Numbered from the stretch's first letter, positions 7,737 through 36,170 are shown. The stretch is 59,689 nucleotides of DNA from an uncultured Candidatus Saccharibacteria bacterium (GCA_964546795.1 CAZJKG010000001.1:1-59689); one strand, 5' to 3'. Made by a program: numbers and translations. The notes: generated by a model not told the origin, from the letters alone.

Positions 7737-7765
7737 TTGATGTCATCCGGATAAAGAGGTATAAT
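7737..7765 (+). promoter_or_regulatory. sigma70-type promoter of the methyltransferase gene with flanking operator-like repeats
   Basis: TTGATG (7737-7742), 17 nt, TATAAT (7760-7765). The 10-mer TGATGTCATC occurs at 7738-7747 (over the -35) and 7765-7774 (just after the -10). Confidence 0.55.
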
Positions 7766-7779
7766 GATGTCATCGACCT

Positions 7780-9093
7780 ATGCCACCAATCGCCAGCTCA
7801 ATACAAAAGCAGTTCAAAATATTAGAACCTCGTGAGGAGTGGTCTTTTAGAGATGCAGGTCGTTCTCAGACCACCGCCTTCTCTCATGACTACCACCGTT
7901 ACCCAGCAAAATTTATTCCACAGATCGTCCGCAAACTGATCGAAGATTACGCGCCAAGCACTGAGCAAATAGTCTGTGATCCATTCGGTGGATGTGGGAC
8001 GACTCTGGTGGAAGCAAAACTGCTAGGACATCCCAGCATCGGTTTTGATATCAACCCTGTTGCGAAATTGATAACCCAAACAAAGACTACCGCGATCAAG
8101 CCACGCACCCTTACAAATCACAAGCAGAAATTTTTAGAGTACTACGATATGGCACCTAAGATTTCCTACGAGCACCATCCTCGCATTACCTACTGGTTCG
8201 ACGAGGAAACAATCACCGAATTAGACAGAATTTATTTTGCGGTAAAGAAAATAGAGAATCATAATGTCCGCAGGTTTTTCCTCTGTGCCTTTTCACACAA
8301 CCTTAAAAACTGCTCGCGCTGGCTGATGAAAAGCATCAAGCCAACCATCGACAAGGATAAAATCATACCCGTCCCAAAACAGTCTTTCCTCCGGCATCTT
8401 GATTCAATGATTAGAAAGAACGAGTTGTTCTATACGAAGCTGGCTGAATCCGGACGCACTAAGGTCTCCGCTAAGATGTATCGCCGAGATTCCACTAAGA
8501 CATTCTCGATGGAGTCTGAATCGGTAGATTTAATCGTTACGTCTCCACCCTACGTCACCTCATATGAATACGCTGATCTTCACCAGCTGACGCTTCTATG
8601 GTTCGGGGATGATCCTAAGCATTTCAAAAAATGGCATCATTTTAGTAATGGATTTATAGACTTTCGTCGAACTTTTATCGGCACAAGTTCAAAAGCTAAA
8701 AAAACTGGTGACTTCAACAGCACCATAGGAAAAAAGATTGTCGACGATCTTATGCTAGTTGAACGTCCACTCGCTATCGATGTCGCAAATTATTTTCTGG
8801 ATATGCAAAAAGTATTCGCCGAAACTCACCGAATCCTTAAGAAGGGTGGAAAGGCCTGCGTGATTATTGGCAATACCAATCTTCGAGGCGTAGAAATTCA
8901 AAACGCGCAGGTTGCGGCAGAACAGATGCAGGCCGCTGGTTTTACCAAAGTAGATTTTATAAAACGCGAAATCCCTAATAAGATGATTACTCCGTGGCGC
9001 GACACTGAGAGCGGCAAATTTACAGGCATGGACAATCCGTCAAAAACTCGTGCTTACGAATTTGAGTATGTAGTTGTGATGGAAAAGAATTAA
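7780..9093 (+). CDS. DNA methyltransferase, N4/N6 (amino-MTase) family, motif I before motif IV
   Basis: 437 aa. AdoMet-binding VCDPFGGCGTTLVEAKLLG near the N-terminus and catalytic LIVTSPPYVTSYEY about 190 aa later. An SPPY tetrapeptide is more typical of N4-cytosine enzymes (inference). Confidence 0.85.
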   Translation: MPPIASSIQKQFKILEPREEWSFRDAGRSQTTAFSHDYHRYPAKFIPQIVRKLIEDYAPSTEQIVCDPFGGCGTTLVEAKLLGHPSIGFDINPVAKLITQTKTTAIKPRTLTNHKQKFLEYYDMAPKISYEHHPRITYWFDEETITELDRIYFAVKKIENHNVRRFFLCAFSHNLKNCSRWLMKSIKPTIDKDKIIPVPKQSFLRHLDSMIRKNELFYTKLAESGRTKVSAKMYRRDSTKTFSMESESVDLIVTSPPYVTSYEYADLHQLTLLWFGDDPKHFKKWHHFSNGFIDFRRTFIGTSSKAKKTGDFNSTIGKKIVDDLMLVERPLAIDVANYFLDMQKVFAETHRILKKGGKACVIIGNTNLRGVEIQNAQVAAEQMQAAGFTKVDFIKREIPNKMITPWRDTESGKFTGMDNPSKTRAYEFEYVVVMEKN

Positions 9094-11612
9094 ACAATTT
9101 TCCTTATCATGCCAGGTAGGGCTTTCCCAATAGCACGCATAGCAGAACCGAGAATCAGGTCCTTATCAGGATCGTTTTTTAATTCAAAGTAAAGATACAG
9201 AGAATAAATATAGGTGTCAGCAATATATTTATTTTCCGCACTTCCAACCTTATCAAGGCCCACCATCTTTTTTAGGTCCTTCAAGGGTTTGGAATCCACA
9301 TTTAGATTAACTATCAATCCTTGCGTTCGAGAGGAGTCAACACTGGCCACGCTATGCTCATTCCATCCATGGGTTGGCCAATCTCTTTCGTAAACAGGGT
9401 TTCTTTTTGGTTCGTTAAGCTTCGAACTTTCTTCGGGAGATATGACCTCGATTGGTATAGAGATATCAAACTTATGATCACCGTCATTGTTAATCAGTAT
9501 TTTGGCATCTGGTATTTTTCCTAATTTTTCAGTGGCGGCATAAAAGGTGACTTCAAGAATGCCGTCATTTAAACGAAATTTCTTTAGCCGTAAATCGTCA
9601 CGATCTTCAAACTCAAATGACCCAGGATCAGCTTCCCGGGTAAAGTAGTCATTTGCAACATCCGTAGCAAAACTGAATTTTTTATTTGTTTTTGACGGAA
9701 TTCTTAACGTTTCCTTTAGTGGCTTAAAGTATGTTGGGAAATATGAACCTTCGTAAGGAGGCGTCTCGATTATTTTGAAAGTAACCGTTTGTTCAAATTT
9801 CTTTACTTTCTCGGAGTCTAGCAGAGTGAAAGTAATTTTATCTTGATCACCAACTTTGGCATTTTCTCTACAATCTACACGGAGGGAGACAATGCCCTTA
9901 TTCATACTGCGAACAACGACATCGAGGAGGGTTGAATCTTTCGACCAATCAATGTAATAGCGGTTCTTTTTTCTGGTAAAGAGTTTGTCTTCCGCGTCGG
10001 TCTTAAAAGATATAAGGGTATAGGAAGATTTATCGACCTCCTTGGGCTGGCTTCCTACAAGTTCAAACATCTTTGGATGTTCTTCGCCGACATACTTCTC
10101 TTTATCCTCGTCTTTCCCTTTCGGAATCTTAATTTCTTCACCGATACCGAGTAGCTCTTTTAGTTCAGGATCGTCAACAATTGCTCTCTCTATAAGCTTA
10201 TCAAGTTCCTTATTATCCTCATTAGAACTTGCCAAGCTTTTTTCTTGATATTCCCTATCCCATTTCTCGAAAATCTCATTTTCAAAGAATTTTTTTAGAC
10301 GATCTCTCAGGGTGTGATAATCTTCAGTGCGAGCTAATTCCTCTCTTCCAGAATGAAAGATGTTTGCTAGTTCGACTGGAATATCCGACATATCAATATA
10401 ACAGAGCAGATAGGGAGCTAGAGCAGGAAGTTGACAATCTGTTCGCACAAAAGATTCATTCTCATATCCTAGTGCCAAGCCATTTTCCAGATAGAATATT
10501 TTCTGATTTAGTTCTTTATAAGATTTTACTCCTTCGGCATCGCTTATATGCCTCAAGCGAATGCATCGAATATTACGAGTTCCTATCTCACCCAAACCCG
10601 CTGGAAGTGTGATGTCGTCATTGATAATGTTTTTATTATCCTCAATTCGTCTAAGCAAACCCGCAATTGTATATTTTGTATCTCCCTTCCACCCTCTCTT
10701 GTCTTGCAAAAAGATAGGGAGTGGAGGTTTCTGTAATTTCTGATCAAAATCAAAAGCTAGTGAATGGAATCCGAAAGTTATGTTTGATGGATTATCCAGA
10801 TAATAGTCGTACAGACGAATGAGACAGCCATCGATAAAATCAATTTCTAAACCATCAATTTTTATTGGATTATCATAAGGAAAAGAAAAAATGCCCTCAG
10901 TTATGTCGGTACAGTATTCGTAATAGGGAACCCTATTTTTATAACTACGTCTCACCAAAGTGAATCCCCAATCGTTCTTCTCATTTTTATCAGCAATACT
11001 TTCTGCGCGTCGGGATAGAACGAGTTGGTAGCATTTAGATTTGCCACCGGCGAAGCGTATGGCTGCTGATCCGCCTTGATGGTACTTACCAAAGACAAAA
11101 TTAATCTTCTCTTTTATACTCTCACTCAATCCAACGATAGTATCTTGGATTCTATTAGGAGTTTGCCCTTCTCCACGATCAATAATAGTAATTGTCGGCC
11201 TCTTTTTATCACCCTCAGCTAAAACGACTAAGTGTTGCCTTGCCCACGCGCTTCGGTTTTTATTTATCTCCTCCTCACTCCCGAAATATTTTGTAATTGC
11301 TTCAGATAGAGTTTTTGGTAATCGTGGATCACCACTACTAGGATGCACACCTTCCACTTCGTAGCATCGTCTCATTAACAATGCGTCCGTAGAATTTGTT
11401 ATTTTTTCAACCAAAGCATTACTTGAGCTTTTCATCTGCCCCTCAATCTGCGGAGCATTAAGTTCACGCCCACCATACGGCACCCATTTAGAGTTTTCGG
11501 GTCCAAAAAATGCTTCACTTTCGATCAAAGAGGCTATCTCTTCTGAAGAAACAGTACCGAGTAGTTTAAAAAATATTTCTTTGTTCAGCTTTTGATTCAT
11601 ATTTATTTTCAT
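9090..11612 (-). CDS. GHKL-superfamily (MORC/HATPase_c_3-like) ATPase, large uncharacterised C-terminal region
   Basis: 840 aa. N-box ALVEKITNSTDALL, G1 box ITIIDRGEGQT, G2-like GKYHQGGSAAIRF in the first 200 aa or so. I recognised no domain in the remaining 600 aa or so. Its stop codon overlaps the MTase stop (TTAA at 9090-9093). Confidence 0.75.
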   Translation of the reverse strand: MKINMNQKLNKEIFFKLLGTVSSEEIASLIESEAFFGPENSKWVPYGGRELNAPQIEGQMKSSSNALVEKITNSTDALLMRRCYEVEGVHPSSGDPRLPKTLSEAITKYFGSEEEINKNRSAWARQHLVVLAEGDKKRPTITIIDRGEGQTPNRIQDTIVGLSESIKEKINFVFGKYHQGGSAAIRFAGGKSKCYQLVLSRRAESIADKNEKNDWGFTLVRRSYKNRVPYYEYCTDITEGIFSFPYDNPIKIDGLEIDFIDGCLIRLYDYYLDNPSNITFGFHSLAFDFDQKLQKPPLPIFLQDKRGWKGDTKYTIAGLLRRIEDNKNIINDDITLPAGLGEIGTRNIRCIRLRHISDAEGVKSYKELNQKIFYLENGLALGYENESFVRTDCQLPALAPYLLCYIDMSDIPVELANIFHSGREELARTEDYHTLRDRLKKFFENEIFEKWDREYQEKSLASSNEDNKELDKLIERAIVDDPELKELLGIGEEIKIPKGKDEDKEKYVGEEHPKMFELVGSQPKEVDKSSYTLISFKTDAEDKLFTRKKNRYYIDWSKDSTLLDVVVRSMNKGIVSLRVDCRENAKVGDQDKITFTLLDSEKVKKFEQTVTFKIIETPPYEGSYFPTYFKPLKETLRIPSKTNKKFSFATDVANDYFTREADPGSFEFEDRDDLRLKKFRLNDGILEVTFYAATEKLGKIPDAKILINNDGDHKFDISIPIEVISPEESSKLNEPKRNPVYERDWPTHGWNEHSVASVDSSRTQGLIVNLNVDSKPLKDLKKMVGLDKVGSAENKYIADTYIYSLYLYFELKNDPDKDLILGSAMRAIGKALPGMIRKIV

Positions 11613-11637
11613 ATTTATGTTCTTGGAGAGGAGCTAT

Positions 11638-11868
11638 TTATAAGCGGAACTCTCGGTTTTTGGGGAAGTGGAATTTTGCCTTAACTTCCTTTAATTTACG
11701 TTCAATTTCATAAAATATTTTATCCACGTCCTCCTCGGTATATTGATAAGCTTGTCTATTTGCACAATTTCCAAGCACCTTAAGCCTTCGGAGAACAGTG
11801 TTCGTGCGAAGCGTGGCCAACCTTTTGAATCTTTCTTGAGGGGTCTCTTTTTTATTTGGCTTTTCCAT
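11638..11868 (-). CDS. small basic hypothetical protein, first gene of the GHKL operon
   Basis: 76-aa ORF ending 25 nt upstream of the GHKL ATPase start, same strand. Minus-strand TATAAT (11874-11879) lies 5 nt upstream of its ATG. Confidence 0.6.
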   Translation of the reverse strand: MEKPNKKETPQERFKRLATLRTNTVLRRLKVLGNCANRQAYQYTEEDVDKIFYEIERKLKEVKAKFHFPKNREFRL

Positions 11869-11937
11869 AATATATTATATTTATCACATCTAGTTTACAG
11901 ATGCAAGGGTGTTATGCCCTTTATAAGGGTAGTCTAA

Positions 11938-11949
11938 ATGAAAAGATAA
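11938..11949 (+). other. displaced original 5' end of mnmA at attL (ATG AAA AGA then element-derived TAA)
   Basis: Joining 11938-11946 to 16997 onward gives ATG AAA AGA AAG GTC TTC GTC GGG..., which translates to MKRKVFVGLSGGVDS, a canonical MnmA N-terminus. Confidence 0.6.
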
Positions 11950-12068
11950 GACGAGTCAATAAGATACACACCCATCCATCTATCGTAAGATAGGCAAAAG
12001 TGATAGAATAAAATCAACAGTTAAATAAGCGCCTCACGAGGCAACCTGAAAGGTATTCCGAGTCCAAG

Positions 12069-12781: not shown

Positions 12782-12958
12782 ATGAGAATAAAAAGGTCGC
12801 CACAATTCAAAATCGAAACGATTTACCGGGAAGTGCCGGACAAGAAGGATCGTATCCGGCAACTTTGGGATTTATTGATATCCCTGCCGGAGCAGGAAGA
12901 TAAGAAAATAGAAAATAAGAATCCTTATGAAAATCAAAAAATCACAGCCAACGTATAA
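12782..12958 (+). CDS. possible 58-aa ORF (below the ORF-track cutoff)
   Basis: ATG 12782 to TAA 12956-12958 (MRIKRSPQFKIETIYREVPDKKDRIRQLWDLL...). It fills the gap between the terminator and the next gene and overlaps the 12927 start by 32 nt. Confidence 0.3.
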   Translation: MRIKRSPQFKIETIYREVPDKKDRIRQLWDLLISLPEQEDKKIENKNPYENQKITANV

Positions 12959-13181
12959 CACCACCGACTTCTATTTGAGTTGTTTTCTTCTAGCAAGAGG
13001 GATACAGCTCATAGGACTCAATCAAACCGATGATCCGGGTCGTCGGTCTTTTGTGTTTGTGGAATCGGAAATGCGATCCGTGCTCATGAACGAGTACAAC
13101 TTTGACGGAGAAGCGGAAATCAACGTGAGAGATTTTATATCGGCCATACGCAAACTCAAGACTCTCTTATACGAAAAATAA
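12927..13181 (+). CDS. DUF5659-like small protein
   Basis: 84 aa. TTDFYLSCFLLARGIQLIGL...RRSFVFVES matches my recollection of the DUF5659 pattern common in phage and CPR elements. Confidence 0.55.
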   Translation: MKIKKSQPTYNTTDFYLSCFLLARGIQLIGLNQTDDPGRRSFVFVESEMRSVLMNEYNFDGEAEINVRDFISAIRKLKTLLYEK

Positions 13182-13182
13182 T

Positions 13183-13953
13183 ATGGCCAACATCCCAAAC
13201 ACAACTCAAACGCCTAACATCATTTTCAACGGCTTGATGAAAGAGATGTCTGACACCGAGCTTCGTGTCGTGCTTATCGTTACCCGGGCCACACTCGGCT
13301 GGGTTTTGGATAGGGAGAAGGGAATGCGAAAAGAGGAGGATTGGATTTCACACTATCAGCTGAAGCAAAAGACCGGCCGTGAGTCCGGCGCCATATCTAA
13401 AGCCATTGACCGGTGTATCCAGAAAGGATGGATAGAAGCCAGAGACCACGGTGGCGAACTGTTGGATACCAAAGACAAGCGACGTGGCAAAAATATCTAC
13501 TACCGCTTGGGTCCAGCAATCCTTTTGAGAACATCTTCGGAAAGCGAAGATGTATATGTAACCTCTTCCAAAAGCGAACTTCATAAACCGAATTTCGCAA
13601 AGCAAAGTATACAAAAGGTAATCCCTACAAAACTAACTATACAAAAAACTATATTGCCGACTCTGGAGGATATCGAGATATCCATGACCTTAAAAGAGTT
13701 TGTTGATTGGTGCAGTAAGAGTAGTCAAAAGCACATTCGGATCATCGGTAACTGGGCAGACACCATAGAGCCAGATTTTAAGACCAAACAGCAGTGGGAG
13801 GCATTTCTGAAAAGAAATCTAAGAGCGGCCAAGAATCTTGAGCCATTCGAGGATAAACGACTGATCGAAGGATTCAAGAAAATCCAGGAAGCGGCAAAAC
13901 AGGGTTGGCTCAAGAAATACACACTGGAGACTCTCTTTAAATTCATCGTATGA
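13183..13953 (+). CDS. replication-initiator-like protein (phage replication protein O N-terminal-like wHTH)
   Basis: 256 aa. TQTPNIIFNGLMKEMSDTELRVVLIVTRATLGWVLDRE...ISHYQLKQKTGRESGAISKAIDRCIQKGWI follows the Rep_O N-terminal pattern. Confidence 0.6.
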   Translation: MANIPNTTQTPNIIFNGLMKEMSDTELRVVLIVTRATLGWVLDREKGMRKEEDWISHYQLKQKTGRESGAISKAIDRCIQKGWIEARDHGGELLDTKDKRRGKNIYYRLGPAILLRTSSESEDVYVTSSKSELHKPNFAKQSIQKVIPTKLTIQKTILPTLEDIEISMTLKEFVDWCSKSSQKHIRIIGNWADTIEPDFKTKQQWEAFLKRNLRAAKNLEPFEDKRLIEGFKKIQEAAKQGWLKKYTLETLFKFIV

Positions 13954-14643: not shown

Positions 14644-15219
14644 ATGGCCAAACTGAAACACATAACCAAATACCACGAACGAGCGCTCGAACTGAAATAT
14701 AAAGGGTATTCCTACCAAAATATCGCCGAGGACATCAATAGGAAATTTGAAAAAAGTAGAAAAGCCAAATTCACCGAGCAAAGCGTAAAAGATTGGTTCA
14801 AACAATCCGGAACATTGCAGGAAACCTATAGGCTCTACGCGCAGGAACTGGATATCATCCATCAAGAAACCGTGGACATAGTCCGGAAAGCCGGTGTGCG
14901 TGTTCGTGAGCAGAATTTTCGCTTGGCCAATGAGATGCTCGTAGCTCTTATGGGAAGTCAGAATGACGGCGTGAAGCTCGCGGCCATCAAGGAACTTTTA
15001 GATCGTGTAGAGGGTCATCCTAAAGACCGCATTGAGCTTAGCAAGATCAACTTTAAAGATATGTCACCGGGCGATCGATGGGAGTTTATTCCTTACGAGA
15101 TGCAACTTGCTCTGGCACGCAATCAATACCCCGATGCCAAGGCCGCGATCATAAAAAAGTGGCTTGCGGACGGAGAACCAGCTGTGGGCAACTCGAGCTT
15201 AGCGGATGAGCAAAATTAG
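14644..15219 (+). CDS. hypothetical HTH-like protein (element)
   Basis: 191 aa. N-terminal ERALELKYKGYSYQNIAEDINRKF resembles an HTH. It ends inside the 5' region of the recombinase ORF. Confidence 0.6.
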   Translation: MAKLKHITKYHERALELKYKGYSYQNIAEDINRKFEKSRKAKFTEQSVKDWFKQSGTLQETYRLYAQELDIIHQETVDIVRKAGVRVREQNFRLANEMLVALMGSQNDGVKLAAIKELLDRVEGHPKDRIELSKINFKDMSPGDRWEFIPYEMQLALARNQYPDAKAAIIKKWLADGEPAVGNSSLADEQN

Positions 15220-15259
15220 TATAGGGTGCTGTGTTGAGAACGAAGATGAGCATAAAAAT

Positions 15260-17980
15260 ATGAAATCAGTCCTTTACGCCCGGGTTTCAACCGAGGAACA
15301 AAAAAGCAATCAAACCATCGACACTCAAATTCATGGCATCGGTGGAATGTTGCAATATGCCATCAATCACAAATTGCCGGTCCCGGACGAGACAATGATG
15401 TTCATTGATGATGGCTTCAGCGGAGCGACACTGATACGTCCGGCTCTCACTGCTTTCCGTGAGTATTTGAAAACGCATGACGATGTCAGCTATTTTCTGG
15501 TTTATGACGCCGACCGAATCGGCCGAGACACGTATAACCAACTGATTATCCTTGAGGAGCTCAAAAAGAAAAACGTCACCATCCATTTTAAGACCGGCGA
15601 GCTCGGATCAACCCCGAACGATAAACTGCTATTCACCATCTTAAGCGCGTTCAGTGAATTCGAGAGAGCAAAAATAATGGAGCGAACCCAGCGCGGAATG
15701 AAAAGAAGAATAGAGTCCGGCAAATTTAATGGCGGACGTCCGCTTTTCGGATATCGATACAATTATGCGATCGGCAAACACGAGCTTGACGAAACCGAAG
15801 CTAAGGTAGTGAAGATGATTTATGACTGGTACACCGAGGACAAACTCAACATCAGACAAATCCAAGCCAAACTATTTGAGCTTAAAATCCCCACTAAATA
15901 TGACGCTCTGAAAAATAACGAAAAGAATCGCAAGATGAAAGGATTGAAAAAGTTTCCGCTGGGCTGGTGGAGCGAAGTGACAATACGAAACGTTCTGGCC
16001 AACGAAGCGTACACCGGTCGATGGTACTGCTGTAAAAATCAGACCATCAAATTGGACGTGGCGAATCTTCGGACGGGGAAGCCTAAAGTCAGACAAATCA
16101 AAAGAGCCAAAGAGGAATGGTTTCCGATAGAGATACCAAGGATCGTCTCCGATGAACAGCATAAGAAAGGACTCCTGCAAGCTAGAAAGAATTTGATGTT
16201 CGCCAAACGATGTACCAAGCAAACATATCTACTGCAAGGACTCATCCGATGCGGTAAAGACCATCTCAAGTATCGCGGTCATCAGGAAAAAAGTGGCGTC
16301 ATTTATTACTACTGCAAAAGCCGGATGAATAATAATCCGGTAGAGAATTGCCATAGTCCGTATCTGCGAGCGGATCAGATCGAGCCAATAGTTTGGAACA
16401 CGGTACAATCGATCTTGAAAAATCCGGAAGATGTTTTTAACACGTTCCGTGACGAATCCATACTGAACGAGGAACGAGCCAAAAGTATCGAAGGCCGATT
16501 AGATTATATATCCGGCGCGGTCAAAAAACTTGAGGTGGCCAAGAAACGAATCACCGAGGCGTTTAAAGCCGAAGTGATGACGCTTCCGGAATTGAGGAAA
16601 GAGAAAACTGATATCGAACTTAGCGAGGAGAAGCTTATTTCCGAGCGTGATGCTTTGATGATGAAGCTCAACGTTCAGCATGACGTGAGCGCAAAGATCG
16701 ATCTGTTTAAAGAAACCTGCTATAAGTTTTTGAGCAAAATAAACGATCCGAAAATAGTGACAGAACGTCTGAAAAAAGATATAATCAAACTCTTAATTGA
16801 TGAAGTGGTGATCGAAGGCGAGAGCGTCAAGATTTTTGCCACCATCCCTCTGCCGAATAAGATTCACGAACGGGAAATGGACAAAACTGACATTCCCGGT
16901 ACTTTTAATGCTGGGGCCACATTAGGCCCGGTGAACGAAACGAATATGACCAGAATTTGGAATAAACACAAACAAACAAATACCCCTCTTAAAAGAAAGG
17001 TCTTCGTCGGGTTGTCGGGAGGAGTGGACTCCGCGGTGTCGGCGGCACTTTTGAAGCAGGCGGGTGCATACGTAACGGGCGTATTCATCAAGGGTTGGTA
17101 TCCGCCCGGGATGCCCTGCTCATGGGCAGAGGAGCGCCGCGACGCGATGCGGGTTGCGGCGCGGCTTCAGATACCGTTCCGTACGCTTGACGCGAGCGTT
17201 GAATACAAAAAGGGAGTCATTGATTATCTCTTGGCCGAATATCGCGCCGGCCGCACGCCGAATCCTGATGTCATGTGCAATCGTGAAGTGAAGTTCGGTG
17301 CGTTCTCGCGCTATGCCATGGCACAGGGAGCCGACGCCATCGCGATGGGACATTATCGCTCGGGAGAGAATGATCAGAGTTATTTCCTCTGGGCGGTGCC
17401 CAAAGACATTCTGGCCGGAACGCTGTTTCCCGTGGGTTCCTATGAAAAGAAAAAAGTGCGCGAACTTGCAAAGCATTTTGATCTGCCGGTTGCGCAAAAA
17501 AAGGACAGCCAGGGTATTTGCTTTCTCGGCAACATTTCAGTTGAAGAATTCCTGCGCAGCGAATTTGATGTTCTGTCCGGCCGTGCACTTGACGAGCAGG
17601 GACGCGTCCTTGGCCAGCACGGAAGCGCTCTACTCTCCACTATCGGCGAGCGCGTTGCGCTCAAGGGTGCTCTTGAGAAAGGTCCGTGGTTCGTGCTCGC
17701 AAAAGATGTCGCCAAGAATGAGCTTATCGTGGGGAAGACGCGGCTTCCGCATTCCGCTCCCTCGCACCAAGAGATACCATTCACCGATGCTAATTGGTTT
17801 GACGTACCGGAGAATGTTACGGAAGCGCACTATCGCTATCGAGGTCCGCATGTACCGGGAAGCATCAGGGGAGATCGTTTCGTGAGTTCGGAACCGCTTC
17901 CGGATATTCCCGCTCCCGGCCAATCGCTTGTTTTCTATCATTCTGGCGAACTTGTCGGTGGTGGTATTATTGCTTCATGA
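15260..17980 (+). CDS. chimeric open reading frame: large serine recombinase (about 579 aa) running without a stop into MnmA
   Basis: Resolvase catalytic motif VLYARVSTEEQ, recombinase domain (GGRPLFGYRY), Cys-rich zinc-ribbon segment, coiled coil. There is no in-frame stop before attR, so the frame continues into KRKVFVGLSGGVDSAV (MnmA P-loop). Confidence 0.8.
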   Translation: MKSVLYARVSTEEQKSNQTIDTQIHGIGGMLQYAINHKLPVPDETMMFIDDGFSGATLIRPALTAFREYLKTHDDVSYFLVYDADRIGRDTYNQLIILEELKKKNVTIHFKTGELGSTPNDKLLFTILSAFSEFERAKIMERTQRGMKRRIESGKFNGGRPLFGYRYNYAIGKHELDETEAKVVKMIYDWYTEDKLNIRQIQAKLFELKIPTKYDALKNNEKNRKMKGLKKFPLGWWSEVTIRNVLANEAYTGRWYCCKNQTIKLDVANLRTGKPKVRQIKRAKEEWFPIEIPRIVSDEQHKKGLLQARKNLMFAKRCTKQTYLLQGLIRCGKDHLKYRGHQEKSGVIYYYCKSRMNNNPVENCHSPYLRADQIEPIVWNTVQSILKNPEDVFNTFRDESILNEERAKSIEGRLDYISGAVKKLEVAKKRITEAFKAEVMTLPELRKEKTDIELSEEKLISERDALMMKLNVQHDVSAKIDLFKETCYKFLSKINDPKIVTERLKKDIIKLLIDEVVIEGESVKIFATIPLPNKIHEREMDKTDIPGTFNAGATLGPVNETNMTRIWNKHKQTNTPLKRKVFVGLSGGVDSAVSAALLKQAGAYVTGVFIKGWYPPGMPCSWAEERRDAMRVAARLQIPFRTLDASVEYKKGVIDYLLAEYRAGRTPNPDVMCNREVKFGAFSRYAMAQGADAIAMGHYRSGENDQSYFLWAVPKDILAGTLFPVGSYEKKKVRELAKHFDLPVAQKKDSQGICFLGNISVEEFLRSEFDVLSGRALDEQGRVLGQHGSALLSTIGERVALKGALEKGPWFVLAKDVAKNELIVGKTRLPHSAPSHQEIPFTDANWFDVPENVTEAHYRYRGPHVPGSIRGDRFVSSEPLPDIPAPGQSLVFYHSGELVGGGIIAS
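16946..17980 (+). CDS. mnmA: tRNA-specific 2-thiouridylase MnmA (host gene, N-terminus now supplied by the element)
   Basis: PP-loop SGGVDSAV, then NPDVMCN, GHY and CFLG motifs. Internal ATG 16946 (MTRIWNKHKQTNTPLKRKVFVGLSGG) is the first candidate start in the integrated state. A sharp AT-to-GC shift occurs at about 16,995. Confidence 0.8.
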   Translation: MTRIWNKHKQTNTPLKRKVFVGLSGGVDSAVSAALLKQAGAYVTGVFIKGWYPPGMPCSWAEERRDAMRVAARLQIPFRTLDASVEYKKGVIDYLLAEYRAGRTPNPDVMCNREVKFGAFSRYAMAQGADAIAMGHYRSGENDQSYFLWAVPKDILAGTLFPVGSYEKKKVRELAKHFDLPVAQKKDSQGICFLGNISVEEFLRSEFDVLSGRALDEQGRVLGQHGSALLSTIGERVALKGALEKGPWFVLAKDVAKNELIVGKTRLPHSAPSHQEIPFTDANWFDVPENVTEAHYRYRGPHVPGSIRGDRFVSSEPLPDIPAPGQSLVFYHSGELVGGGIIAS

Positions 17981-35093: not shown

Positions 35094-36170
35094 TCAGGAT
35101 TCAATTAGAGGAATTATGTTTTTGTTGCGAGCGAGAATACATGTGGCATTAACACTACCTCCATCTTGAAAAGAACGCTTATATTCTTTTTCTTTCCCGA
35201 TTTCTAAATATTTTTCAGACATTTTCACTGCAGCCACAACTTTTCGGACAAAATCTATATTTTCGCCCCAACCCATAAAATAAATACTTTCTACACCGGA
35301 TGGTAAGTGTTCTGTACGATACACGTAACTACTAATCTCCTCGGTATTTCTTTTATCCCTCGCTGCTACTAGTATAAAAGAAACCTTTATGTTGTTATCC
35401 CGGAAATCCATATTACTAATCGATCTGCGCTCTCGGCTGATGAATTGTAAAAGGAATCCAATAAATTTCTCCACTTCTTGAGACAGTCCTCTTATATGTG
35501 GGCGAAATGATGCCTTTGCTCCAAGAAAAACCATTTCTTGAATAAAGACAGTAAAGAAAACACCGCCTTCGTCCATCTGTTCAAGCTTATTGAACAAGGT
35601 CTGTATATTTGGATGTTTTGCAATAAGTGGTCTATAAAATTTCTCTTCCAGCTCCTTTAATCCTTCCTTTCCTCCATTCATCAGAATATTTTTTGCGGTA
35701 TAAAGACGAATAGCTTCCTGTTGAAGACGATTTAAAGATGGATCGATCCTCGAATATAAGTGTTGGCTATAGAAAACTGCGACGTTCGCTAAATTTTCTC
35801 CGTGATTCTCTCTTTTCTGAAGATATAGTACGAGAGTATGGTCTCTTATAAATGCTTCACGTGTCGTGGTTCTAACAAGGACTATTTTAACTTGATTGGC
35901 GTCGAGTCCATCTATCTTGCTTAGAACATTTTCGATACCCTTGCCGACTTTGCCCTCGATATGGTTAACAACGTAATAACGCTCGGCAAAAACACCAAAG
36001 AAATAGGATAGAACTGACCAGACCTGAGCGAGAACAAGTTTGACGTTGGCGGGATACTGAACCCAAATCCACCAAAGAATCAGTGCTATAACAACTGCTG
36101 ACCCGAGACCCGTGGTAAGACCACCTGCGAATCCTCGGGCAGTGGCTTCTGCAATTTCAGGACTAATCAT
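35094..36170 (-). CDS. membrane-anchored hypothetical protein (N-terminal TM, soluble domain of about 290 aa), very AT-rich
   Basis: 358-aa ORF. GFAGGLTTGLGSAVVIALILWWIWV is hydrophobic; I recognised no motif in the remainder. Its start overlaps the upstream 81-aa gene by 8 nt. Confidence 0.7.
   Translation of the reverse strand: MISPEIAEATARGFAGGLTTGLGSAVVIALILWWIWVQYPANVKLVLAQVWSVLSYFFGVFAERYYVVNHIEGKVGKGIENVLSKIDGLDANQVKIVLVRTTTREAFIRDHTLVLYLQKRENHGENLANVAVFYSQHLYSRIDPSLNRLQQEAIRLYTAKNILMNGGKEGLKELEEKFYRPLIAKHPNIQTLFNKLEQMDEGGVFFTVFIQEMVFLGAKASFRPHIRGLSQEVEKFIGFLLQFISRERRSISNMDFRDNNIKVSFILVAARDKRNTEEISSYVYRTEHLPSGVESIYFMGWGENIDFVRKVVAAVKMSEKYLEIGKEKEYKRSFQDGGSVNATCILARNKNIIPLIES

Follow-up and report, generated by a model that had tools for sequence, protein, structure and literature searches.

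A three-gene module of a DNA methyltransferase, a small controller-like protein and a GHKL ATPase of predicted Hsp90-like fold in a Candidatus Saccharibacteria genome

The stretch of DNA analysed here, which we call the window, comprises 59,689 nucleotides from an uncultured Candidatus Saccharibacteria bacterium (GCA_964546795.1 CAZJKG010000001.1:1-59689). At positions 7780-11868 it carries three genes that a preliminary description had put forward as a candidate defence module, namely, an amino-methyltransferase gene convergent with genes for an 840-amino-acid (aa) ATPase of the GHKL superfamily and a 76-aa partner. The three open reading frames (ORFs), the motifs read in them and the overlap of two of their stop codons, checked base by base, are all present:

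7780-9093, plus strand: methyltransferase ORF, 437 aa
9090-9093: TTAA, the overlapping stop codons of the convergent methyltransferase and GHKL genes
9090-11612, minus strand: GHKL ATPase ORF, 840 aa
11638-11868, minus strand: small basic ORF, 76 aa, with 20 lysines and arginines against 11 aspartates and glutamates

The 4-nt overlap of the stop codons is identical in 11 of 19 related loci, is longer in five and is replaced by a gap in three. It had been remarked that no terminator lies between these genes, which holds trivially, because they overlap; a terminator-like hairpin does occur at 9158-9173 (plus strand), within the 3' end of the GHKL gene, and such sites are no more frequent in the region than in shuffled sequence. 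The block had also been singled out as the most AT-rich part of the left arm, and its G+C content, 0.37-0.40 over 9-12 kb as against 0.50-0.58 for most of the window, is indeed the minimum of the first 35 kb. GHKL ATPases in restriction-modification (R-M) loci are a known theme, as the preliminary description had noted, described by Iyer, Abhiman & Aravind in 2008 (PMC2292703). What is new is the cassette found here, in which a methyltransferase, a small regulator and an Hsp90-like ATPase come together without a helicase or a nuclease.

Motifs and modelled fold both identify the 840-aa protein as a GHKL (Bergerat-fold) ATPase, with ATP hydrolysis as its predicted activity. First, the N box EKITNSTDA (E69, N73, D76, A77) and the DRGEGQ box (D145-Q150) are invariant in 23 diverse homologues, as expected from the earlier reading of these two boxes; the third box, or lid, reads G175-KYHQ-G180-G181-S, and so is not literally the GxxGGS that had been reported. 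Second, E69, N73, D76, D145, G147, G149, G175 and G180 are invariant both in 23 members of the clade and in 39 diverse members of the superfamily, while the ATP-site residues, including K167, are invariant or at least 97% conserved across 138 superfamily representatives. Third, the middle domain has a flexible loop (FHSGREE; in the sister clade, FMNSRDRLR) whose arginine, R423, is conserved to 99% in the superfamily. We take this loop to resemble the catalytic loop of Hsp90, whose arginine contacts the gamma-phosphate.

The family to which this protein belongs appears to be undescribed, in line with the proposal of an undescribed module. The protein had no match in Pfam, NCBIfam, PADLOC (E <= 1) or PHROGs, and no true match by sequence in the PDB, searched with phmmer and with two family profiles, where the single match, THO complex subunit 7 (E 0.25), was discarded as a low-complexity coiled-coil artefact; literature searches on GHKL/Hsp90-like defence proteins found no paper describing the family. 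Homology search returned 430 full-length relatives, of which the 120 listed are unnamed or called only 'hypothetical protein'. A profile search covering 1.84 billion representatives showed how large this unannotated superfamily is, with at least 1,839 clusters at 50% identity (E <= 1e-3; 629 at E <= 1e-30) in bacteria and archaea. Among viral models, the named GHKL-type matches were phage topoisomerase II ATPase subunits and giant-virus Hsp83.

A model predicted by AlphaFold2 from 23 diverse homologues (mean predicted local distance difference test score, pLDDT, 78; predicted template modelling score, pTM, 0.44; pLDDT 80-92 in the ATP-binding domain) divides the protein into the following predicted regions:

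10773-11435, minus strand: GHKL ATP-binding domain, aa ~60-280, with the N box, the G1 box (D145-G-E-G-Q150), K167 and the lid (G175...G180-G181)
10233-10760, minus strand: middle transducer-like alpha/beta domain, aa ~285-460, with R423, from AlphaFold2, Foldseek and conservation
10098-10229, minus strand: charged linker, aa ~462-505, pLDDT <50
9300-10064, minus strand: immunoglobulin (Ig)-like beta-sandwich domains, aa ~517-771, from DSSP on the model and Foldseek
9096-9290, minus strand: C-terminal helical hairpin, aa ~775-839, from the AlphaFold2 model

When compared with the PDB using Foldseek, the model found as its top matches the N-terminal and middle (N+M) domains of TRAP1, Hsp90, GRP94 and HtpG (E 3e-8, probability 1.0, ~450-490 aligned columns), the structural counterpart of the middle domain being the Hsp90 M domain. 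The label 'MORC-like' given at first has therefore to be revised, since the modelled fold of this protein is Hsp90-like (N+M) rather than MORC-like. It had further been stated that no nuclease, helicase or S5-like domain could be recognised beyond the N-terminus. The first two were not found here either, as no nuclease, helicase or Toprim fold appears in the model or among its top structural matches (PDB and viral models), but a predicted transducer domain of S5/Hsp90-M-like type does occupy aa ~285-460. The C-terminal half matched Fab, filamin, intimin and SbsC, and also phage Ig-like tail proteins; its Ig-like region contains the motif FxTDxxxDxxxR twice (aa 536-547 and 648-659) and ends in a small domain bearing P735, W745 and N771. 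By analogy with the C-terminal helical bundle of Hsp90, the terminal hairpin is a candidate dimerisation element. An invariant acidic/histidine cluster outside the ATP site was not found among 39 diverse superfamily members, which makes a nuclease site common to the whole family unlikely.

The resemblance to Hsp90 goes beyond the structural match over ~450-490 residues, for both proteins have a charged flexible linker, a helical element at the C-terminus and, in the middle domain, a flexible loop with a conserved arginine, the last being a likeness in presumed working only. However, sequence identity is a mere 10-15%, the Pfam HSP90 and NCBIfam HtpG models are not matched (E <= 1), Ig-like domains stand in place of most of the C-domain, and the genes around the window protein are mobile and R-M genes rather than genes of proteostasis. 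As judged by sequence, then, the 840-aa protein falls outside the Hsp90 family.

The product of the convergent gene is, from its sequence, an alpha-class amino-DNA methyltransferase. It had been described as an N4/N6-type enzyme with motif I about 190 aa before motif IV, and both motifs were found, DPFGGCGTT at aa 67-75 (FGG at aa 69-71) and SPPY at aa 255-258, 188 aa apart and invariant among the homologues. This is the motif order of the alpha class, in which motifs X-I-(II-III) precede the target-recognition region, here of ~190 aa, and motifs IV-VIII follow it, motif IV reading (S/D/N)PP(Y/F); in keeping with it, the Pfam N6_N4_Mtase profile matched (3e-19) with its halves in permuted order, the C-terminal part, which holds motif I, coming first. 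The PADLOC Type II methyltransferase model PDLC03322 matched over its full length (6.5e-51), and PHROG 18146, a phage methyltransferase family, matched as well (1.9e-52). SPPY as a sign of N4-cytosine methylation is an established rule of thumb, not proof. Over 95% of its length the enzyme shares 25.6% identity with M.DraR1, a plasmid-encoded, alpha-class N4-cytosine enzyme of Deinococcus radiodurans R1 with SPPY that methylates CCGCGG (PMC10855626). Because of this full-length likeness, N4-cytosine methylation is probably the activity of the window enzyme, although its recognition sequence cannot be deduced at this level of identity.

Homologue loci were obtained by exact-protein look-up and by a scan of species-representative genomes, and were scored with hidden Markov models of the three proteins; nearly all of this evidence comes from metagenome-assembled sequence, and the choice of search patterns biases the sample of loci. 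With respect to the clade that includes the window (clade 1), the results were as follows. First, the same type of methyltransferase adjoins the GHKL gene in all 20 distinct informative loci, namely, those that extend past the GHKL gene; GHKL identity across clade-1 loci ranges from 37 to 94%, and the methyltransferase homologues that adjoin every clade-1 GHKL gene are 53-82% identical. Second, this linkage survives rearrangement, since two loci (L006 and L007) keep the trio in another gene order, with methyltransferase, small ORF and GHKL gene on one strand and beside a serine recombinase. Third, relatives at 71-78% identity lie on contigs assigned to Patescibacteria (many), Clostridiales, Nitrospina, Deltaproteobacteria, Gammaproteobacteria and Terrimicrobiaceae, a spread over several phyla that argues for horizontal transfer. 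The three genes thus form a real, conserved and horizontally mobile module with an R-M-like layout. The methyltransferase, which had seemed solitary, is instead a fixed partner of the GHKL gene in this clade, and the linkage to methyltransferases, one of the points on which the initial proposal had been staked, is very strong.

Three loci deserve separate mention. When L004:2789-6901 is compared with window 7780-11868, the small proteins are 71% and the methyltransferases 78% identical, but the GHKL proteins only 39%. Recombination breakpoints within the GHKL gene were considered as the cause of this mosaic and rejected, since divergence is uniform along the gene; the pattern suggests rather that the whole gene was replaced or that the ATPase has evolved very fast. 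L024:8974-13925 is a decaying copy of the module, with the GHKL gene broken up over seven or more frame pieces, the methyltransferase gene over two, and the small ORF ~800 nt off instead of abutting. At L001:11905-15056 (Pacebacteria), an 819-aa protein without a family match, unrelated to the GHKL family, stands beside the methyltransferase and is followed by a 229-aa DUF4160 protein.

The 76-aa protein had no family match in Pfam, NCBIfam, PADLOC (E <= 1) or PHROGs, with no helix-turn-helix (HTH) match among them. It has 345 homologous clusters, those listed being unnamed or generically labelled, and AlphaFold2 predicts two helices (aa 10-38 and 45-65, pLDDT 71) for which a fold search found no structural match in the PDB. 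In 23 of 24 clade-1 loci, and in 15 of clade 2, the gene immediately upstream of the GHKL gene is this small ORF. The sequences upstream of this operon, and of the methyltransferase gene, contain the following candidate sites:

11931-11959, minus strand: sigma-70-like promoter candidate of the small-ORF/GHKL operon, TTGACT-17-TAGACT, a consensus match
11905-11929, minus strand: operator-like half-sites, CCCTT (11929-11925)-ATA-AAGGG (11921-11917)-N7-CCCTT (11909-11905)
7737-7765, plus strand: sigma-70-like promoter candidate of the methyltransferase gene, TTGATG-17-TATAAT, 10/12 matches, a consensus match only

Promoter-like sites as such are not enriched in the region relative to shuffled sequence. 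Among regions upstream of the small ORF, 22 of 26 contain TTGAC (z 8.5), as do 13 of 14 homologous regions; AAGGG/CCCTT occurs in 13 of the 26 (null expectation 2.2, z 7.8) and TAAGG/CCTTA in 16 (z 5.9). In the window, the operator-like half-sites start immediately downstream of the -10-like box. In both clades the conserved small protein comes with the palindrome ATAAGGATA-N3-TATCCTTAT, so that clade-2 loci whose small protein is ~70-75% identical to that of the window have the same palindrome (for instance ATAAGGATATGCTATCCTTAT in L078) while their GHKL cores are only ~28-30% identical to the window's; divergent small proteins, in turn, have different palindromes at the equivalent position. 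Because the upstream palindromes co-vary with the small protein, the latter is most likely a sequence-specific, controller-like autoregulator, co-transcribed with the GHKL gene and predicted to bind these sites. For this protein, first described as a partner of the ATPase, a regulatory role of this kind fits best.

Two further features were noticed in this upstream region. A perfect TATAAT lies at 11879-11874 (minus strand), 5 nt before the ATG of the small ORF, which has no Shine-Dalgarno sequence; the transcript may therefore be leaderless. There is also an extra inverted repeat, CATCT (11903-11899) and AGATG (11891-11887) on the minus strand, which is kept in L008.

Clade 2, the sister clade, consists of proteins of ~780 aa with at least 3,690 matches, including an archaeon. 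Nearly all of the matches listed are unnamed or 'hypothetical', although one UniRef record bears the name 'Histidine kinase-, DNA gyrase B-, and HSP90-like ATPase'. Profile comparison with hhalign established homology of the two clades over the whole length (probability 100%, E 7.5e-68, 729 aligned columns), clade 1 having one extra beta-domain of ~110 aa. In clade 2, only about one quarter to one third of the loci have an adjacent DNA methyltransferase, and this comes from several unrelated families: N6_N4 in L029 and L033, C5 in L032, Dam-like D12 in L030, and N6_Mtase+S-domain fusions in the Type I islands of L026, L028 and L031. McrBC is the neighbour in L034, and many other members stand alone or in defence islands. 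For 80 metagenome loci of this clade, whose neighbours were clustered free of annotation from our own ORF calls, the small protein was found at position -1 in 15, a convergent SPPY methyltransferase at +1 in 14, and HsdM-like methyltransferases in four. In a Pfam scan of 84 downstream neighbours from 56 clade-2 loci, N6_N4_Mtase ranked first (12 members), followed by N6_Mtase, Methylase_S, Eco57I, PDDEXK, Mrr and Fic, the rest being singletons.

Plasmid-borne relatives adjoin SIR2, DUF262 and PAPS-reductase genes, or VapBC and integrases, and elsewhere in the superfamily the neighbours include Fic, MazE, a serine recombinase, VapBC, SIR2 with DUF262, McrBC, and Mrr_N with patatin. These comparisons suggest a superfamily core unit made up of the GHKL protein and a DNA-binding partner; the methyltransferase is linked to this unit very strongly but facultatively. 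Its association is fixed only in the window's clade, and, since an adjacent methyltransferase is missing from most clade-2 members, the superfamily as a whole does not depend on methylation.

Position -1 is taken by other proteins in part of clade 2, namely, a HARE-HTH protein in four loci and three families without Pfam match, of 349 aa (16 loci), 157 aa (seven) and 220 aa (five), several of them with winged-helix-looking C-termini. Examples of these alternative partners are:

L098:5377-5937
L045:4942-5991
L119:176-838
L064:5490-5963

On the other side of the GHKL gene, a gene of ~350 aa with the metallo-beta-lactamase (MBL) fold follows directly in L006:10511-11563, L103:2759-3820 and L120:2714-3316. 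The MBL proteins of L006 and L103 are 45% identical (E 4e-112), whereas the GHKL cores of their clades are only ~30% identical. As it occurs in these three distinct loci only and is absent from the window, we discarded the MBL-fold neighbour as a general effector, and regard it as a rare, optional fourth gene whose product is a candidate hydrolase or nuclease helper.

The GHKL and transducer modules of MutL, type II topoisomerases, MORC and Hsp90 are dimeric gates closed by ATP. For this reason, and because a family-wide nuclease site is unlikely, our preferred reading is that the trio is an R-M-like module, carried on an integrated element, in which the GHKL protein acts as an ATP-gated DNA clamp in what would be a defence function, a reading to which we assign about an even chance. 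The methyltransferase would mark a short sequence in resident DNA, and thereby presumably protect it. The small protein, made from the same transcript as the GHKL protein, would bind the palindromes overlapping its own promoter, and would time or limit expression as the controller (C) proteins of R-M systems do. The 840-aa protein, with its ATP site, its transducer with an arginine finger, its Ig-like domains and its helical tail, would be the component of restriction or exclusion: dimerised through the tail, it might bind ATP and thereby close its N-terminal gate round DNA with unmethylated targets. DNA so trapped could be blocked from replication or expression, or else handed to a nuclease supplied in trans, a part that the neighbouring MBL-fold gene could play in the three loci where it is present. 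It is tempting to speculate further that this would be restriction without any nuclease, by a GHKL dimer that reads methylation and clamps unmethylated foreign DNA topologically, so as to silence or exclude it without cutting, under a new type of two-helix controller, as a prokaryotic counterpart of silencing by MORC or SMCHD1; this extended version we consider clearly less likely than not.

Several observations weigh against a methylation-dependent clamp. A system based on methylation requires an effector, and we see none in the window. The low pTM of the full-length model (0.44) means that domain arrangement and dimerisation are not established by it, and almost all of the evidence is metagenome-assembled. 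Within clade 2, four members on long contigs are solitary, and nine of the ten loci that have the pair of small ORF and GHKL gene have no adjacent methyltransferase; these solitary members and pairs suggest that the GHKL protein is not intrinsically lethal to unmethylated hosts, or that it depends on unlinked methyltransferases. Last, the C-terminal region does not track the family of the partner methyltransferase. We had entertained the C-terminus as a swappable target-recognition domain and rejected it, since clade-2 tails are homologous whatever methyltransferase, or none, adjoins.

The main rival to the clamp is an ATP-dependent Type II-like endonuclease, in which the 840-aa protein itself would cut unmethylated sites by means of a cryptic active site, specific to the clade and located in the middle domain or in the beta/C-terminal region, while the methyltransferase and the controller-like protein would have their classical functions. 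The sequences of restriction enzymes are known to vary widely, and the order of a controller-like gene, a large gene and a convergent methyltransferase gene is that of many Type II systems, with the trio strictly conserved. Candidate residues exist as well: D269, H355, D407, H420, E424, E454, D651 and D655 are polar, outside the ATP site and invariant in clade 1, and the consensus of clade 2 has D689...D695...E702-x-K704 near the C-terminus. However, none of the former is conserved across the superfamily, the D...ExK of clade 2 is replaced by I...LxK in the window's clade, a nuclease fold is seen neither in the model nor among the structural matches, and solitary clade-2 members would poison themselves if they cut unmethylated DNA. 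We consequently hold a cutting enzyme to be unlikely, while treating it as the reading against which the clamp has chiefly to be judged.

Roles outside R-M immunity are less likely for the window's clade. One such possibility is a maintenance or regulatory module, in which the GHKL protein would remodel or compact DNA or act as a chaperone of Hsp90 type, and the methyltransferase would set an epigenetic state for the life cycle of the mobile element or serve post-segregational addiction only. It would account for the trio being cargo of integrative elements, for the many superfamily members that sit without a methyltransferase among ordinary genes, and for the closest fold being that of a chaperone. 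Yet several unrelated methyltransferase families, together with R-M and defence neighbours, occur far above any plausible background, toxic restriction genes typically show controller-type regulation and a convergent, overlapping layout such as are seen here, and the family was not found in IMG/VR viral contigs, so that we judge this possibility decidedly unlikely. The second is an effector of modification-dependent (Type IV-like) restriction or of abortive infection, with an independent or counter-acting methyltransferase and an antitoxin-like small protein. Solitary clade-2 members beside McrBC, Mrr_N, or SIR2 with DUF262 would fit such an effector, as would the autonomy of the small-protein and GHKL pair in that clade; but a methyltransferase in 20 of 20 loci, in a fixed and overlapping arrangement, is hard to explain without functional coupling, and a basic small protein with co-varying palindromes points to DNA binding rather than protein inhibition, which leaves this reading with a slender chance. 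Finally, a housekeeping GHKL protein of HtpG, MutL or GyrB/ParE type that merely adjoins a methyltransferase, an outcome the preliminary description had itself raised, is effectively refuted and carries a negligible probability, since despite Hsp90-family proteins being the best structural matches there is no sequence match to Hsp90, MutL or topoisomerase models or to PDB chains, the C-terminal architecture differs, the distribution is patchy with horizontal transfer, and the context is one of mobile elements, R-M genes and defence islands.

The closest known systems are those of MORC and paraMORC1-5, GHKL ATPases of prokaryotic R-M operons proposed to be ATP-driven engines acting on DNA (Iyer, Abhiman & Aravind, 2008; PMC2292703). 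The window protein shares with them a GHKL domain followed by a transducer-type domain with a basic finger (here R423), mobile genes embedded beside DNA methyltransferases, the proposed role in R-M systems as such an engine, and the occurrence of some members as solitary genes, as reported for paraMORC3. It is unlike them in four respects. First, the window and the clade-1 loci have no superfamily II helicase and no HNH, RE-fold, Vsr, TIR or RecB-like nuclease. Second, the window protein misses the Pfam HATPase_c_3 profile, which only some distant relatives reach at about the threshold (P0129, 25.5 bits for a cut-off of 25). Third, its nearest structural relatives are Hsp90 N+M domains, with an Ig-like C-terminal half and a helical hairpin. 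Fourth, the module has a dedicated small, controller-like partner. The individual families are marked by GhXhhpXXRhl (MORC), ExxxH (paraMORC2), a RecB-like nuclease (paraMORC3), TIR (paraMORC4) and HxH (paraMORC5) (PMC2292703); membership in paraMORC3 or paraMORC4 was rejected, as the model contains no nuclease or TIR fold, whereas the family might coincide with one of paraMORC1, 2 or 5.

Type II R-M systems with C proteins provide the closest parallel in layout, as they too have a small regulator upstream of, and co-transcribed with, the gene in the restriction position, a separately promoted methyltransferase gene (here a prediction), and palindromic boxes that overlap the regulator's own promoter. 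In contrast with C proteins, the small protein is not of the HTH_XRE type but a predicted two-helix hairpin, and the restriction position is occupied by a GHKL ATPase without a nuclease fold; a cognate endonuclease was sought in the three window proteins, none of which showed a nuclease family, motif or fold. The DraI system has an alpha-class SPPY methyltransferase in common with the window, but the partner of M.DraR1 is a GIY-YIG enzyme encoded ten ORFs away (PMC10855626). In BREX and related methylation-based exclusion systems, self is marked by a site-specific methyltransferase, an ATPase is essential and a nuclease is not evident (PMC9122589), which offers a conceptual precedent for restriction without cutting; the window has, however, no homologue of PglZ, BrxC, BrxL or PglX, consists of three genes, and has an ATPase of a different superfamily. 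More broadly, the large and small proteins were unmatched (E <= 1) in PADLOC-DB 2.0, which covers BREX, DISARM, Mza, Tiamat and others, and MANTIS was set aside as unrelated, being made of an AAA+ ATPase and a PLD-helicase. Among eukaryotic proteins, the GHKL ATPase SMCHD1, which acts on methylated or silenced chromatin, combines a long beta-rich region with a dimerising hinge at the C-terminus. The window protein presumably has its parts in the same order, with an Hsp90-like GHKL domain and transducer first, then beta-rich domains and a (predicted) C-terminal dimerisation element, but it is far smaller and has no SMC hinge.

GHKL (MORC-like) ATPases were predicted for R-M systems in 2008, and our searches found no paper that characterises a prokaryotic one. 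The operons described at that time are complex, with helicases and nucleases, whereas the one studied here is a strictly conserved cassette of three genes, small enough to be cloned. It could therefore show what part an ATP-gated clamp plays in the discrimination of self and foreign DNA, and whether restriction can work without a nuclease; were the clamp to be free of nuclease, the cassette would provide a three-gene model for the action of GHKL ATPases in R-M systems. In addition, the small protein may represent a new kind of controller, and profiles of the GHKL and small-protein families would let defence-annotation tools recognise thousands of genes now called 'hypothetical'.

The surroundings of the module indicate how it may have reached this genome. 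It is placed between housekeeping genes and the junction of integrase and mnmA. To its left lie an efflux system, a cupin gene and a TspO gene, and to its right the following ORFs:

12927-13181, plus strand: DUF5659 protein
13183-13953, plus strand: protein with weak resemblance to Phage_rep_O / replication initiator O
15206-17980, plus strand: large serine recombinase ORF running in frame into mnmA, 924 aa, with no stop between

For an ORF at 14644-15219 the only match, a faint one in PHROGs, was to a terminase small subunit, and other small unknown genes are nearby. The 924-aa ORF matches Pfam Resolvase, Recombinase and Zn_ribbon_recom at aa 22-400 and a PHROG integrase up to aa 567 (1.2e-78), followed by tRNA_Me_trans from aa ~598; mnmA is complete, with a possible methionine of its own at about aa 580. 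Since the recombinase runs in frame into mnmA, and since G+C content steps from 0.435 to 0.552 at ~17 kb, the module appears to be carried by an element inserted at the 5' end of mnmA, with the recombinase ORF marking the right end of that element. A search for an att-type direct repeat found nothing longer than 11 nt, which is uninformative, and the left end was not located. The module had been placed directly beside mnmA; the junction of integrase and mnmA is in fact at ~16.9-17.0 kb, ~5 kb to the right, but on the same integrated element. A second patch of low G+C content (0.38) coincides with a 358-aa ORF at 35094-36170 (minus strand), which lies beside grpE, has no Pfam match and may be another horizontally acquired gene.

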